Shown here: piece after piece, positions 31,136 through 36,135 of the stretch | Position numbering within the stretch: position 1 is the stretch's first letter | Layout: the number at the start of each line of letters is the position of its first letter | NCBI RefSeq assembly: GCF_055900595.2 | Contig: NZ_CM148325.1 | Reading direction: 5' to 3' (one strand) | DNA length: 64,000 bases | Made by a program: the position numbers and the translations under genes | The notes under the pieces: generated by a model | What the model saw: only the letters and a program-made list of their open reading frames with translations | What the model was told of the DNA's origin: nothing | The model's database searches: none

Positions 31136-31166
31136 CGACAACACCGAATTTACAGGAACACAGAAC

Positions 31167-31991
31167 ATGCAAAACATTACCCAGTCCTGGTTTGTCCAGG
31201 GAATGATCAAAGCCACCACCGACGCCTGGCTGAAAGGCTGGGACGAGCGCAATGGTGGTAACCTGACGCTGCGCCTGGATGACGCCGATATCGCACCGTA
31301 TCACGACAACTTTCATGCACAACCGCGCTATATCCCGCTCAGCCAGCCCATGCCTTTACTGGCAAATACACCGTTTATTGTCACCGGCTCCGGCAAATTC
31401 TTTCGTAACGTCCAGCTTGATCCTGCGGCTAACTTAGGCGTCGTAAAAGTCGACAGCGACGGCGCGGGCTACCACATTCTCTGGGGGCTAACTCACGAAG
31501 CCGTTCCAACCTCTGAACTTCCGGCTCACTTCCTTTCCCACTGCGAGCGCATTAAAGCCACCAACGGTAAAGATCGGGTGATCATGCACTGCCACGCCAC
31601 CAACCTGATCGCCCTTACCTACGTACTGGAAAACGACACCGCGCTCTTCACTCGCCAGCTTTGGGAAGGCAGCACCGAGTGTCTGGTAGTGTTCCCGGAT
31701 GGCGTCGGCATTTTGCCGTGGATGGTGCCCGGCACGGACGAAATCGGCCAGGCGACCGCACAGGAAATGCAAAAACATTCGCTGGTGTTGTGGCCCTTCC
31801 ACGGCGTCTTCGGCAGCGGTCCGACACTGGATGAAACATTCGGTTTAATCGACACCGCAGAAAAATCAGCACAAGTATTAGTGAAGGTTTATTCGATGGG
31901 CGGCATGAAACAGACCATCAGTCGTGAAGAGCTGATAGCACTCGGCCAGCGTTTCGGCGTTACACCACTTGCCAGTGCGCTGGCGCTGTAA
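31167..31991 (+). CDS. rhaD: Rhamnulose-1-phosphate aldolase
   Basis: Internal ATG at 31167 gives [39 protein letters not shown]... (274 aa). Confidence 0.97.
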
Positions 31992-32000
31992 GGAGCAAAT

Positions 32001-32315
32001 ATGATCCGCAAAGCCTTTGTCATGCAGGTTAACCCCGACGCCCACGAAGAGTATCAGCGTCGGCATAATCCAATCTGGCCGGAACTGGAAGCAGTGTTGA
32101 AATCTCACGGTGCGCATAACTACGCCATTTACCTCGACAAAGCGCGTAATCTGCTGTTTGCCACGGTAGAGATTGAATCTGAAGAACGGTGGAATGCGGT
32201 AGCCAGTACTGATGTTTGCCAACGTTGGTGGAAGTATATGACCGACGTTATGCCAGCTAACCCGGATAACAGCCCAGTCAGTAGCGAGCTGCAAGAAGTG
32301 TTTTACCTGCCTTAA
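32001..32315 (+). CDS. rhaM: L-rhamnose mutarotase
   Basis: [64 protein letters not shown]... 104 aa. Confidence 0.93.
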
Positions 32316-32355
32316 TGAGTTGCGGTGCCGGAAAATATCCAGCACCGCGCCTTCA

Positions 32356-33750
32356 TCAGAAGAAGTATTTAAAGCGAACGCGTGCGCCGTAACGGTCATC
32401 AGTATCATCACCGTGTTTTTTATCACCGTCGCTATCCAGAATGGAGTAATAAGTACCAAGGTAAATATTAAAGTTCTCCATATCCATCACATTAGCGAAC
32501 TGATAAGACGCATGAATGGTGTGAATGGTGTACGTCCCTTCATCATCAATCCAGCAGTCGTTATCACAAACTACACCGCTGAATTCATCAATCTTATTGT
32601 GCGCGTAGATATAACCCAGCTCGAAACGTTTCCACAGCGCGTTAATCCCGGCAGTGAAATCTTTTTCATTATTAGCATCTAAATAGGCGGTATTAAGATT
32701 AACCACGACGCCATTTTCCGGATCCGTTTTCAGGCCATTCCAGGTCATGCTCATACCATAGCCGGTACGATCGGACTGATCGACAAAATTACCCTTGCTA
32801 TCGGTATAACCATAAGCATTATTTACTACGTTCGCTTCCATCGCTGCGGAAACGGTGAATTCTTCCGTCGGCGACCAGGCAATTACCGGACGCAGATAAG
32901 CAACATTTTTCTGCTGCTCCATATCGCGTCCATGATAATTACCGTCATTATATAAAGATGTTCCGTCTTCAAGTAACGTGTTTAATTCAAAATACCAGTT
33001 ATCGAGTTGTTTGCTGACGAGGAAATTACCGCCAGCGTTAGAGCGCCCTCGGCCCTCTTTCATCATATAGATATAACCGCTGCCATCGTCATAAAGATCG
33101 TTCGCAGTATTACCGGAATGTTCAACAAAGGTATCCTGATTCAGCGGGAACATATCGTAGGCTTCAAAACGGCCTACTTTGACCTTCCAGTCGTTTTCTT
33201 TGCCAAAGAAGAATACCGCATCATCGATATTTACTGAACCGTGCATATCCCCCAGCGGTTGTGCGGAGAACCCGGCGAAATAACCATTATCCAGTTTTCG
33301 CATACCATCAAAACCTAACAGAATACGACCATTGAGATTCCACTGTTCATTAGTGGGATCGCTATTCACATCAGCGTTGGTCATTGCCAGCAGGCCATGA
33401 TTACTTTCCGCATCCATATTAAATTCTACGTCGCCGTAGATTTTTAAATCGCCATAACCTGAAAGCAAAAGATTAGGTGAGGTGGAATTTTTCTTTGCAG
33501 ATTCCGCCGTTGCCTGTCCATTAACCGGCGTATTGCCCTGGGCAGCTTTAATTTCGCGGATCTCAGCGGCTTGTTGTGTCTGCAGCTGTTTAACCTGGCT
33601 CTCTGCTTTTGCTGCCCGCATTTCTGCCGCTTCCAGGCGTTCTTCCAGCAATGCCATGCGTTGTTCCAGCGTTAAATGCTGTGTTTTTGCCATTCCGGTA
33701 CTACATGCCAATAATAAACCGATGGCTAAAGATAATGTCGATTTTTTCAT
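32356..33750 (-). CDS. Putative outer-membrane sugar-type porin (signal peptide, ~60-aa N-terminal coiled coil, beta-barrel with C-terminal aromatic residue); ScrY/OprB-like architecture
   Basis: MKKSTLSLAIGLLLACSTGMA signal peptide; heptad-like LTLEQRMALLEERLEAAEMRAAKAESQVKQLQ; Gly/Tyr/Asn-rich alternating barrel strands; ends ...RFKYFF. Family call is by architecture only. Confidence 0.62.
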   Translation of the reverse strand: MKKSTLSLAIGLLLACSTGMAKTQHLTLEQRMALLEERLEAAEMRAAKAESQVKQLQTQQAAEIREIKAAQGNTPVNGQATAESAKKNSTSPNLLLSGYGDLKIYGDVEFNMDAESNHGLLAMTNADVNSDPTNEQWNLNGRILLGFDGMRKLDNGYFAGFSAQPLGDMHGSVNIDDAVFFFGKENDWKVKVGRFEAYDMFPLNQDTFVEHSGNTANDLYDDGSGYIYMMKEGRGRSNAGGNFLVSKQLDNWYFELNTLLEDGTSLYNDGNYHGRDMEQQKNVAYLRPVIAWSPTEEFTVSAAMEANVVNNAYGYTDSKGNFVDQSDRTGYGMSMTWNGLKTDPENGVVVNLNTAYLDANNEKDFTAGINALWKRFELGYIYAHNKIDEFSGVVCDNDCWIDDEGTYTIHTIHASYQFANVMDMENFNIYLGTYYSILDSDGDKKHGDDTDDRYGARVRFKYFF

Positions 33751-34226
33751 TATTTACGTTCCCTGAAATAAAAGAGACCCTACGCTTTCCAAAAGGAATA
33801 CGTATATAGAGAAATATAAGGTGTGCACTTTCTAATTTTTAATCCAACTTCAGCAGGCCGATGGATAGTATCCCGCTGCATAATATGAGTAAATCCGCTG
33901 ATTTCCTGGAACGTGAGGAATATAACAATAGTGCCGTTTTTAACTAAATATCGTAAAAAATATTAGATATAATTCACGCTGACTCATAAGCCACAAATAT
34001 AAATAACCTTGCTGCAAAATATGTGCGGCAGTTAAACATTCACAACATCATTAAATAATGATTTTTTATTCACTGCATTTATTTTTCCCATCAATATGTG
34101 CCTTACACCGCAAAATTTATCCTTCACTCTGCCTTATATTGTCACGACTTCACGACATATCCGCGCTCATCACAAAACCGCCCCGCCGTTACAATTAACT
34201 ATAATATTTTTTCATGGAGTCCAATA

Positions 34227-34673
34227 ATGGCAGCACTTACTGCAAGCTGTATTGACCTGAATATTCAGGGCAATGGCACTTATTCCGTTCTGAAGCAGTT
34301 GGCGACAATGGCGTTACAAAACGGTTTTATCACCGACTCACATCAATTCCTGCAAACCCTGCTGGTGCGCGAAAAAATGCACTCCACCGGTTTTGGTTCT
34401 GGTGTCGCCGTGCCGCACGGTAAAAGCGCCTGTGTTAAACAACCGTTCGTATTATTCGCTCGCAAAGCGCAGGCCATTGACTGGAAAGCCAGCGATGGCG
34501 AAGACGTCAATTGCTGGATCTGCCTCGGCGTGCCGCAAAGTGGCGAAGAGGATCAGGTCAAAATCATCGGCACACTGTGTCGCAAAATTATCCACCAGGA
34601 TTTTATCAACCAACTGCGACAAGGCGACGCCGTCCAGGTGCTTGCTTTGTTAAATCAAACCCTCAGCTCATAA
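34227..34673 (+). CDS. frvA: PTS fructose-like EIIA component FrvA
   Basis: Internal ATG at 34227 gives MAALTASCIDLNIQGNGTYSVLKQLATMALQNGFITDSHQF... (148 aa), with the GVAVPHG phosphorylation-site motif. Confidence 0.9.
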   Translation: MAALTASCIDLNIQGNGTYSVLKQLATMALQNGFITDSHQFLQTLLVREKMHSTGFGSGVAVPHGKSACVKQPFVLFARKAQAIDWKASDGEDVNCWICLGVPQSGEEDQVKIIGTLCRKIIHQDFINQLRQGDAVQVLALLNQTLSS

Positions 34674-34683
34674 GGAAGTGGCG

Positions 34684-36135
34684 ATGGAGTCATCCTTACG
34701 TATTGTCGCGATCACCAACTGCCCCGCCGGGATCGCTCACACCTACATGGTGGCGGAAGCCCTGGAACAGAAAGCCCGTTCTCTCGGTCATACCATTAAA
34801 GTTGAAACTCAAGGATCAAGCGGCGTCGAAAACCGCTTATCCAGCGAAGAGATTGCCGCTGCCGATTACGTGATTCTCGCTACCGGGCGTGGCCTGAGCG
34901 GTGATGATCGCGCGCGATTTGCCGGGAAAAAGGTTTATGAGATTGCCATCTCCCAGGCGCTGAAAAATATCGACCAGATTTTCAGTGAATTACCGACAAA
35001 CTCACAACTTTTTGCCGCAGATAGCGGCGTGAAGCTCGGCAAACAGGAAGTGCAAAGTGGCAGCGTAATGAGCCATCTGATGGCGGGCGTCTCTGCGGCG
35101 CTGCCGTTTGTCATCGGTGGCGGTATCCTGGTGGCGCTTGCCAACATGCTGGTGCAGTTCGGTTTGCCGTATACCGATATGTCGAAAGGTGCGCCGTCGT
35201 TTACCTGGGTGGTTGAATCCATCGGTTATCTCGGTTTCACCTTTATGATCCCCATCATGGGCGCTTATATTGCCTCGTCGATTGCCGATAAACCCGCTTT
35301 CGCTCCGGCGTTTCTGGTTTGTTATCTGGCGAACGACAAAGCCCTGCTCGGCACCCAGTCTGGCGCGGGCTTCCTCGGTGCGGTGGTGCTTGGGCTGGCG
35401 ATTGGCTATTTCGTCTTCTGGTTCCGTAAAGTGCGCCTTGGCAAAGCATTACAACCGCTGCTCGGTTCCATGCTGATCCCGTTCGTTACTCTGCTGGTTT
35501 TTGGCGTACTGACTTACTACGTTATCGGACCGGTGATGTCCGACCTCATGGGCGGGTTGCTGCACTTCCTGAACACCATTCCTCCGTCAATGAAGTTTGC
35601 GGCGGCGTTTCTGGTTGGTGCGATGCTGGCATTCGATATGGGCGGCCCCATCAACAAAACCGCCTGGTTCTTCTGCTTCTCTCTGCTGGAAAAACACATT
35701 TACGACTGGTACGCCATCGTCGGCGTTGTCGCGCTAATGCCGCCTGTCGCGGCGGGTCTTGCGACGTTCATTGCGCCCAAACTGTTTACTCAACAGGAAA
35801 AAGAAGCCGCCAGTAGCGCCATAGTGGTCGGTGCCACAGTCGCAACCGAACCGGCTATTCCTTACGCTCTGGCAGCCCCGTTGCCGATGATTACCGCCAA
35901 TACGCTGGCGGGCGGTATTACCGGCGTGCTGGTGATCGCTTTCGGAATCAAACGGCTGGCACCGGGTTTGGGTATCTTTGACCCGCTGATCGGCCTGATG
36001 TCGCCGGTAGGTTCATTTTATCTGGTGCTGGCGATTGGCCTCGCGCTGAACATTTCATTCATTATCGTCCTGAAAGGATTATGGTTACGCCGCAAAGCCA
36101 AAGCTGCGCAACAGGAGCTTGTCCATGAACATTGA
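34684..36135 (+). CDS. frvB: PTS fructose-like EIIBC component FrvB
   Basis: MESSLRIVAITNCPAGIAHTYMVAEALEQKARSLGH... (EIIB Cys motif), followed by a polytopic EIIC domain. Confidence 0.92.
   Translation: MESSLRIVAITNCPAGIAHTYMVAEALEQKARSLGHTIKVETQGSSGVENRLSSEEIAAADYVILATGRGLSGDDRARFAGKKVYEIAISQALKNIDQIFSELPTNSQLFAADSGVKLGKQEVQSGSVMSHLMAGVSAALPFVIGGGILVALANMLVQFGLPYTDMSKGAPSFTWVVESIGYLGFTFMIPIMGAYIASSIADKPAFAPAFLVCYLANDKALLGTQSGAGFLGAVVLGLAIGYFVFWFRKVRLGKALQPLLGSMLIPFVTLLVFGVLTYYVIGPVMSDLMGGLLHFLNTIPPSMKFAAAFLVGAMLAFDMGGPINKTAWFFCFSLLEKHIYDWYAIVGVVALMPPVAAGLATFIAPKLFTQQEKEAASSAIVVGATVATEPAIPYALAAPLPMITANTLAGGITGVLVIAFGIKRLAPGLGIFDPLIGLMSPVGSFYLVLAIGLALNISFIIVLKGLWLRRKAKAAQQELVHEH

Follow-up and report, generated by a model that had tools for sequence, protein, structure and literature searches.

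The open reading frame at 32356..33750 (minus strand) is a real, intact gene for a porin of the RafY family (Pfam Porin_8, TCDB 1.B.15). Probably this RafY-family glycoporin is a wide diffusion channel, an orphan with a CRP-type promoter and a vertically inherited resident of the rhaM side of its locus. The gene is of an already known, ordinary kind and reveals no new type of system. An orphan rafY ortholog, it encodes 464 amino acids plus a stop codon from an ATG start and carries the RefSeq product label "carbohydrate porin" (WP_000749944.1). It fills the gap between the stop of rhaM (32001..32315, plus strand) at 32315 and the start of frvA (34227..34673, plus strand) at 34227. The reading frame is far beyond chance because it matches a Pfam profile with E=3e-154 and because dN/dS among E. 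coli alleles is 0.05-0.08 with dS up to 0.215, which is strong purifying selection. Convergence with rhaM is seen in most orthologs; the divergent adjacency to frvA is not conserved. Within the window (the whole 64-kb stretch of DNA analysed) the neighbours are rha and frv genes, and no homologs of rafA, rafB or rafD and no rhamnosidase genes were found. A scan of the porin against NCBIfam gave no meaningful match and an Rfam scan of 32200-34300 gave a single match at chance level.

The Pfam match is to PF16966 ("Porin-like glycoporin RafY", Porin_8), with 513.9 bits against a cut-off of 25, and it spans the whole profile (positions 1-372 of 372), aligned to residues 104-464 of the porin. Hallmarks of the RafY family found in the protein are a Sec signal peptide, a C-terminal aromatic residue (Phe) and 16 predicted strands, the number given for 1.B.15 by TCDB (PMC4827864). 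Membership of a LamB/ScrY or OprB-like family, as proposed in the earlier note, was not borne out. PF02264 (LamB/ScrY barrel) was absent among the Pfam matches at E up to 1, neither the OprB profile PF04966 nor the general-porin (OmpF/OmpC type) profiles matched, and the predicted barrel has 16 strands, not the 18 of LamB/ScrY; only the coiled-coil extension recalls ScrY. A PDB sequence search gave chance matches only (E ~0.8-1) and no sequence relative.

Residues 1-21 (MKKSTLSLAIGLLLACSTGMA; 33688..33750, minus strand), followed by K, have the usual features of a Sec signal peptide; the alignment shows hardly any variation at Ala21, and the AlphaFold model has a helix over residues 4-16 within this segment. 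Residues ~25-72 (33535..33678, minus strand) form an N-terminal coiled-coil extension, presumed to be periplasmic. One heptad register of this segment has 73% hydrophobic a/d positions, against 29-43% for the other six, and AlphaFold predicts a single helix over residues 28-71 (pLDDT ~85). The heptad-rich segment of the earlier note is thus present as a coiled coil, but at ~45-50 residues it falls somewhat under the ~60 claimed. Sugarporin_N (PF11471) matches residues 27-54 with 15.3 bits, below its 25.7-bit cut-off; several homologs of the porin have a precomputed PF11471 match, and many RafY-family members have no such extension.

The remainder of the protein, residues 100-464 (32359..33453, minus strand), is a predicted 16-stranded β-barrel with a terminal Phe (AlphaFold2, pLDDT 81). 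Its Gly/Tyr/Asn-rich character and final F are as previously described: the porin contains D 10.7%, G 9.9%, N 9.9%, Y 6.3% and F 6.0% and ends in ...RFKYFF. By structure comparison the predicted barrel is closer to classical porins than to ScrY or LamB. Between strands 5 and 6 lies a long loop (residues 195-240; 33031..33168, minus strand) in which AlphaFold places no strand. It is the most conserved stretch of the family, with invariant residues dense in FEAYDMFPLNQDTF...GYIYMMKEGRGRS, and by analogy it is likely to be a constriction loop like L3 of classical porins. Signal peptide, N-terminal coiled coil and β-barrel together support the reading of this gene as an outer-membrane carbohydrate-type porin; a porin profile matches, the structure prediction contains a barrel and K-12 lacks the gene.

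The closest known system is the porin that ends plasmid rafRABD operons, which is 78-79% identical over 97-100% of its length. The plasmid porin is found on pYDC107_184 and many IncF plasmids, 3' of genes for a LacI regulator, an α-galactosidase, an MFS permease and a GH32 protein. RafY of the plasmid raf operon (pRSD2-type) likewise has 464 amino acids and is built in the same way, from a signal peptide, a coiled coil and a barrel. In the sequences compared, plasmid rafY shares 77-78% identity with the E. coli chromosomal gene but only 65-70% with the orthologs of other genera. The chromosomal gene differs in being solitary, without rafR, rafA, rafB and rafD, in its GC content (44.5% versus 39.6% for plasmid rafY) and in having its own promoter with a CRP-like site, which the plasmid copy lacks. 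Linkage to rafR/rafA/rafB/rafD, absent here, is present for same-slot orthologs in Klebsiella, Superficieibacter and Enterobacter sp. ENT03; it is a trait of the founding RafY member and not a Pfam or TCDB criterion for the family.

In the Klebsiella and Superficieibacter rafR-rafA-rafB-porin clusters (L011, L048, L019 and L026) the porin is orthologous (69-75% identity) and occupies the same slot beside rhaM; in L011, L019 and L026 it also shares the upstream CRP-like motif with the E. coli porin. These four genomes keep a LacI-type regulator, a GH36 α-galactosidase and a LacY-type permease next to it; in E. coli, Citrobacter and Kluyvera the porin stands alone. The O157:H7 counterpart of the gene, present without rafRABD, has been called rafY2 (PMC4809568), and isolates of E. 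coli that have rafY and lack rafABD are also on record (PMC12987596).

ScrY and LamB (PF02264) are also outer-membrane oligosaccharide channels, and ScrY has an N-terminal coiled-coil extension in common with the porin described here. Work by Ulmke and colleagues from 1997 is said to have found that RafY complements lamB and scrY mutants. OprB (PF04966) has no comparable coiled coil at its N-terminus. Identity to the porin is only 8-14% for DcaP of Acinetobacter baumannii and for the classical 16-stranded trimeric porins OprP, Omp32, OmpU and OmpF/OmpC, none of which shares a Pfam family with it; their substrates differ as well, with dicarboxylates given for DcaP and phosphate for OprP. GlyP of Klebsiella pneumoniae is a RafY-family porin which, when up-regulated, gives carbohydrates another way in and changes how the strain fares in competition; its pore is described as larger than those of OmpK35/36 (bioRxiv 10.64898/2026.03.29.715108). 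GlyP, likened here by family and description, shares its operon with genes for a LacI-type repressor, a permease and a hydrolase, unlike the solitary porin of this locus.

Comparison of loci shows the porin to be an old occupant of its position. Every ortholog of at least 69% identity (69-85%) is held in the same slot, between frv or azlCD and rhaM, in eight genera: Escherichia, Citrobacter, Kluyvera, Trabulsiella, Pseudocitrobacter, Superficieibacter, Klebsiella and an Enterobacter species. In three of these (Klebsiella, Superficieibacter and the one Enterobacter species) rafR-rafA-rafB lie beside the porin, which rafRAB adjoins in L020 as well as in the four clusters named above. Paralogs also adjoin sugar transporters and glycosidases (GH32, GH36, GH38 and GH78, with MFS or PTS transporters). 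Among complete E. coli genomes the porin is present in 2557 of 5426 (~47%), and it is intact in O157:H7, a BL21 derivative, Nissle 1917 and MS7163.

The absence of the gene from K-12, suspected in the earlier note, was confirmed in strain NCM3722, where rhaM and frvA are just 300 bp apart. By blastn, homology between the window and the NCM3722 locus stops directly after the rhaM stop and restarts at 34092; the segment absent from K-12 (32317..34091) is replaced there by 164 unrelated bp, in which blastn found no remnants of the porin. On reading the sequences, weak K-12 similarity may reach ~34040. Since orthologs hold the same slot in eight genera, K-12 has lost the porin, as has about half of E. 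coli, and the gene is not a recent insertion; because so many strains have lost it, it is dispensable. It had been described as wedged between its neighbours and AT-richer than the flanking operons. The composition is as claimed (GC is 0.445 in the porin and 0.353 in the intergenic region upstream of it, whereas rhaBADM has 0.547 and frvABXR 0.520), but the implied insertion is contradicted by the same-slot orthologs. Low GC is typical of the gene in every genus tested and is a trait of the gene itself, not a mark of recent transfer.

The upstream region contains a CRP-like site, TGTTATATTCCTCACG (33912..33927, minus strand), with two mismatches to TGTGA-N6-TCACA and its centre ~61.5 bp upstream of the predicted transcription start. 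Of 19 chromosomal orthologs, 18 preserve both CRP-type half-sites, with a variable 6-bp spacer between them. Such conservation suggests catabolite-controlled expression from the porin's own promoter, and CRP would be expected to bind at 33912-33927. As the site departs from the consensus identically in all orthologs (TGTtA / TCACg), it could belong to another regulator. The predicted sigma-70 promoter (33865..33893, minus strand) consists of a -35 element TTTACT (33893-33888), a 17-bp spacer and a -10 element TACTAT (33870-33865), with a start near 33858. A -35-like element lies at fixed spacing from the TGTTA-N6-TCACG motif in 17 of the 18 motif-bearing sequences. It reads TTTAC in 15 of them and GTTAC, TTTCA or TTCCA elsewhere, and none is recognisable in Klebsiella L011. 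Where counted, a -10-like TAnnnT hexamer is usually found 16-17 bp past this element, which puts the CRP-like site at -61.5. A generic promoter scan did not call the proposed promoter and offered 33842..33813 instead; shuffled sequence yielded at least as many candidates in the generic promoter and terminator scans. The conserved block TGTTATATT was considered as an extended -10 and dropped, as Kluyvera, Klebsiella and others read TGTTATCTC and the CRP-type half-sites are invariant.

Immediately before the ribosome-binding site, the predicted 5' UTR of ~108 nt (33751..33858, minus strand) contains a small hairpin, CGTATTCC-TTTT-GGAAAGCG. The hairpin shows paired changes in Citrobacter and is present in both the MFE and centroid folds. 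A structured regulatory RNA was rejected, as the whole region is no stabler than shuffles (z=0.27), leaving only this small conserved hairpin. Between the convergent rhaM and porin genes, a stem-loop at 32322..32348 (-20.9 and -27.9 kcal/mol; z -4.9 and -7.8) is likely to be a two-way terminator, though it has no T-run and was not called by the terminator scan.

Once its signal peptide is cleaved, the porin, presumably trimeric, would comprise two parts, a ~45-residue coiled coil in the periplasm and a 16-stranded barrel in the outer membrane, with the conserved strand 5-6 loop probably lining the channel. By homology to the 78-79%-identical plasmid raf porin, it is most likely a wide, weakly selective diffusion channel through which di- to tetrasaccharides (raffinose, sucrose, maltose and similar) could cross the outer membrane at low concentration. 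The gene appears to be transcribed alone, from its own promoter and with apparent CRP activation in a class I arrangement, so that expression would be expected when preferred carbon sources are scarce. The 64-kb window offers no raf partner or rhamnosidase that would point to a physiological substrate in this strain. The porin would be a vertically inherited occupant of the chromosomal slot next to rhaM.

Uptake of the substrate of the cryptic frv PTS, a role put forward in the earlier note, is scarcely credible. The porin is divergent from frvA over a shared intergenic region of 476 bp and the order frvA-porin-rhaM recurs in Trabulsiella (L022), but the distribution of the genes largely refutes such a role: the phylogroup-B2-type strains MS7163 and Nissle 1917 have an intact porin and a deletion of the entire frv operon, while K-12 has frv and no porin. 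Furthermore, Citrobacter and Kluyvera have azlCD and a regulator in between, or no frv nearby. Service to rhamnose metabolism, likewise raised in the earlier note in the form of rhamnose oligomers, with rhamnose oligosaccharides or glycosides entering through the porin to feed the neighbouring rha pathway, is also very unlikely, even though the rhaM side is the constant one. Across the eight genera the porin is convergent with rhaM, at a distance of 47-300 bp in 15 of the loci examined and a larger one where other genes have been inserted, and the other flank varies (frv, azlCD plus regulator, or raf). An IncI-γ/K1 plasmid has the porin, rhaM and rhaD as a single block, and in Phytobacter (L024) and Budvicia (L027) paralogs that are 63-64% identical lie directly 3' of, and on the same strand as, genes for an MFS transporter and a GH78 α-L-rhamnosidase. 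However, gene order is well conserved among these genera anyway, so adjacency alone is weak; the porin is convergently transcribed from a separate promoter, the window has no rhamnosidase, and the closest orthologs with a catabolic partner join raf genes (α-galactosidase) rather than rhamnosidase genes.

It is very improbable that the gene is a decaying, functionless remnant of a former chromosomal raf operon. The raf partners are missing from the window, about half of E. coli lacks the porin, an IS1-mediated deletion in HS30-1 has left only the last 25 codons, and truncated variants of 342 and 367 amino acids occur in protein databases (P0057 and P0027). Against decay, none of the five E. coli alleles examined has a broken reading frame, dN/dS stays low despite dS of up to 0.215, the promoter elements are conserved across genera and orphan orthologs are also kept in Citrobacter, Kluyvera, Pseudocitrobacter and Trabulsiella. 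An alignment of upstream regions showed no similarity to rafB or rafD that would indicate remnants upstream of the porin.

A broader interpretation, tentative and rather unlikely, is that the orphan porin belongs natively to the rha-side slot of the enterobacterial chromosome, as a conserved 'scavenging' channel switched by CRP, and that plasmid raf regions may recombine with it. If so, its presence or absence (~47% versus 53% of E. coli) would alter which oligosaccharides are scavenged, possibly including rhamnosides. Permeability to large antibiotics, phages and bacteriocins could also change, an effect of this type having been reported for up-regulated GlyP in porin-deficient K. pneumoniae. 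Many E. coli in wide use or of medical importance, among them O157:H7, Nissle 1917, BL21 derivatives and strains of the B2 type (for example MS7163), have an extra large-channel porin that K-12 does not; therefore, K-12 data on outer-membrane permeability or oligosaccharide uptake may not transfer to them. The practical value is modest. The locus would serve as an example of chromosomal and plasmid copies being exchanged, and of a single gene that persists from, or predates, a modular sugar-utilisation cluster.

The minus-strand ORF between rhaM (stop at 32315) and frvA (start at 34227), which runs for 464 codons from an ATG at 33750 to 32356, is best read as encoding a stand-alone RafY-type glycoporin. 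The predicted protein has a Sec signal peptide of typical form (MKKSTLSLAIGLLLACSTGMA) and, over residues 25-72, a single heptad register in which 73% of a/d positions are hydrophobic (29 to 43% in the other registers). Asp, Gly, Asn, Tyr and Phe abound in the remainder, whose last residues are ...RFKYFF. The gene has a GC content of 0.445 and the 476-bp region upstream one of 0.353, against 0.547 in the rha genes and 0.520 in the frv genes. These features bear out the earlier note, which described an ORF with a signal peptide at this junction, AT-richer than the flanking operons, with a heptad-rich N-terminal segment and a Gly/Tyr/Asn-rich barrel ending in F.

Pfam profile PF16966 (Porin-like glycoporin RafY) matched residues 104-464 over its entire length (E=3e-154, 513.9 bits; threshold 25). 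The Pfam search gave no match to the LamB/ScrY or OprB profiles, and PF11471, the ScrY-type N-terminal extension, scored 15.3 bits, under its threshold of 25.7; NCBIfam and a PDB sequence search returned nothing useful. Of the ScrY/OprB-like architecture proposed in the earlier note, the layout of coiled coil plus barrel holds, but the protein is a RafY, outside the ScrY/LamB and OprB families. It shares its general layout with ScrY, and its function is probably similar in kind. The RafY family is small (233 clusters at 50% identity), with the coiled coil missing in many members. The porin is 78-79% identical to one carried by many IncF plasmids, 3' of genes for a LacI-type regulator, an alpha-galactosidase, an MFS permease and a GH32 hydrolase, an arrangement which is rafRABD-rafY.

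An AlphaFold2 model built from 48 sequences (mean pLDDT 81, pTM 0.71) has one long helix (residues 28-71) followed by 16 strands within residues 100-463. It scored 19.6 against OprB, 18.0 against ScrY and 17.5 against LamB, with the same picture from Foldseek. Residues 195-240 (46 residues, between strands 5 and 6) have no predicted strand and are the best-conserved part of the RafY family; by position they would match constriction loop L3 of classical porins. The model is consistent with published reports that the pore of RafY is of the general diffusion type and not specific (Andersen et al. 1998, as cited in PMC4827864), and that its pore is larger than those of OmpK35/36 (bioRxiv 10.64898/2026.03.29.715108). 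The predicted strand 13-14 loop holds a C-x3-C pair (residues ~395-401, VVCDNDCW) found in most close homologs; it is missing in homologs P0043 and P0121 and is C-x4-C in P0037. The pair may form a disulfide, and the loop is extracellular if strand 1 begins on the periplasmic side.

Among 5426 complete E. coli genomes, 2557 carry the porin at a coverage of at least 80%. The rhaM-porin-frvA arrangement of the window occurs in 1378 genomes. The gene is intact in O157:H7, the BL21 derivative Rosetta2(DE3) and MS7163, and encodes 457 aa in Nissle 1917. As the earlier note had supposed, it is missing from K-12: the rhaM-frvA gap of NCM3722 is only 300 bp, homology with the window ends directly after the rhaM stop and restarts at 34092, and 1775 bp of the window are replaced by 164 unrelated bp. 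In HS30-1 an IS1 element deleted all but the last 25 codons. MS7163 and Nissle 1917 retain the porin but lack the whole frv operon; a yiiG remnant and fdhD come next. Among E. coli porin alleles dN/dS was 0.05-0.08 and dS reached 0.215, which marks them as old alleles under strong purifying selection.

Two further observations concern the flanks. Across 31900-34700 the rhaD-rhaM and frvA-frvB flanks are only ~92-93% identical to those of K-12-like strains, and only 17 records are at least 99% identical; together with the dS between porin alleles, this makes the locus, or the entire strain, look unusually divergent by E. coli standards. In E. coli E69 and an O111:H8 strain a gene for a fucO/rhaZ-like Fe-dependent alcohol dehydrogenase lies immediately 5' of rhaM, as in Citrobacter and Klebsiella; the window and K-12 are without it.

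All homologs with at least ~69% identity occupy the same chromosomal slot, mostly convergent with rhaM. These include orthologs in Citrobacter (81-85% identity), Kluyvera (79-84%) and Trabulsiella (70%, with frvA-porin-rhaM order as in the window), and also in Pseudocitrobacter, Superficieibacter, Klebsiella and one Enterobacter species. The far flank varies by genus. Some loci have frv there, others azlCD with an HTH/cupin regulator. A third type, with rafR-rafA-rafB (genes for a LacI-type regulator, a GH36 alpha-galactosidase and a LacY-type permease), is seen in Klebsiella (L011, L048), Superficieibacter (L019, L026) and Enterobacter sp. ENT03 (L020); rafRAB may have been added beside the porin in these or lost from beside it in the others. 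The porin gene lies 7-9 GC points under its flanks in all genera tested, indicating that AT-richness is a trait of the gene and not a mark of recent transfer. Most simply, the porin has long resided in this slot, and K-12 and other E. coli lineages lost it.

Distant RafY-family members (50-65% identity) adjoin other sugar systems: an MFS permease and GH78 alpha-L-rhamnosidase in Phytobacter and Budvicia, and elsewhere a GPH-type permease, a LacY-like permease with GH32, a PTS EIIBC with GH32, or GH38. At two Buttiauxella loci (L025, L033) the porin is convergent with lsrK- and lsrR-looking genes followed by ABC-transporter genes, which may be an autoinducer-2 uptake cluster; Pfam confirmed the FGGY-kinase domain only.

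Plasmid and chromosomal copies appear to have mixed. A 2750-bp block (4840-7589) of the IncI-gamma/K1 conjugative plasmid pRHB27-C22_5 (CP057400.1) shares 98.5% identity with the chromosomal segment rhaD-rhaM-porin (window 31162-33911); its neighbours are genes for an MFS transporter and GH32, and it stops one base before the CRP-like site upstream of the porin. In eight plasmid records the porin matches the chromosomal type at 99% identity or more. Plasmid raf or sucrose-type regions thus seem to have recombined with the chromosomal locus. Another E. coli porin, P0029 (78% identity overall), is a mosaic: its N-terminal third is of plasmid RafY type, and its central and C-terminal barrel (columns ~300-440 of the protein alignment) is near-identical to the chromosomal porin, which suggests exchange between the two.

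The motif TGTTA-N6-TCACG lies upstream of 18 of the 19 chromosomal orthologs, with invariant half-sites and a variable spacer; in the window (33912-33927) it has two mismatches to the CRP consensus. In most orthologs a -35-like element follows at a fixed distance 3' (15 of the 18 sequences with the motif have TTTAC here), with a TAnnnT-like hexamer 16-17 bp beyond. The predicted -35 (TTTACT, 33893-33888) and -10 (TACTAT, 33870-33865) of the window put the predicted start of transcription near 33858; relative to it the motif is centred at about -61.5, where CRP classically sits in a class I promoter. From sequence, a CRP class I promoter is probable; the plasmid rafY copy is without the motif. 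A strong stem-loop between the convergent stop codons (32322-32348; predicted -20.9 and -27.9 kcal/mol) probably terminates both the rhaM and porin transcripts despite having no T-run. In the predicted 5' untranslated region, a small hairpin is preserved by paired changes in Citrobacter; taken whole, this region folds no more stably than shuffled sequence does, and it has no Rfam match. In K-12 a perfect match to the CRP consensus (TGTGAGTAAATCACA, ~3515-3535 of locus L002) stands in the 164-bp filler 5' of frvA. The corresponding upstream region of the window, covered over 33740-34240, gave no such site, and frvA regulation may therefore differ between the two types of locus.

The earlier note suggested that it could take up the substrate of the frv PTS, a link contradicted by gene distribution, since the porin occurs without frv in B2-type strains and frv without the porin in K-12. 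Its alternative, uptake of rhamnose oligomers, draws on the conserved adjacency to rhaM and on paralogs adjoining GH78 genes, but this is circumstantial and the 64-kb window holds no rhamnosidase gene; nor does it hold raf genes. Given the purifying selection on it, the gene is unlikely to be a functionless leftover, although its having been lost repeatedly shows that strains can do without it.

Databases already hold this gene and the family it belongs to, and the literature mentions that E. coli can have it as an orphan. For a strain with the same sequence across this stretch, RefSeq annotates it as a carbohydrate porin (WP_000749944.1), a rafY homolog without rafRABD (rafY2) is described in O157:H7 (PMC4809568), and only 23 of 45 rafY-positive E. 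coli isolates had a complete rafABD operon (PMC12987596). Added here are the slot conserved across genera, with rafRAB beside it in some, the 16-strand, classical-porin-like model, the probable CRP class I promoter and the evidence that it has exchanged sequence with plasmid copies. They add useful detail rather than a new kind of system, for a RafY-type porin that would have a catabolite-sensitive promoter of its own and supply a wide outer-membrane channel for small oligosaccharides.
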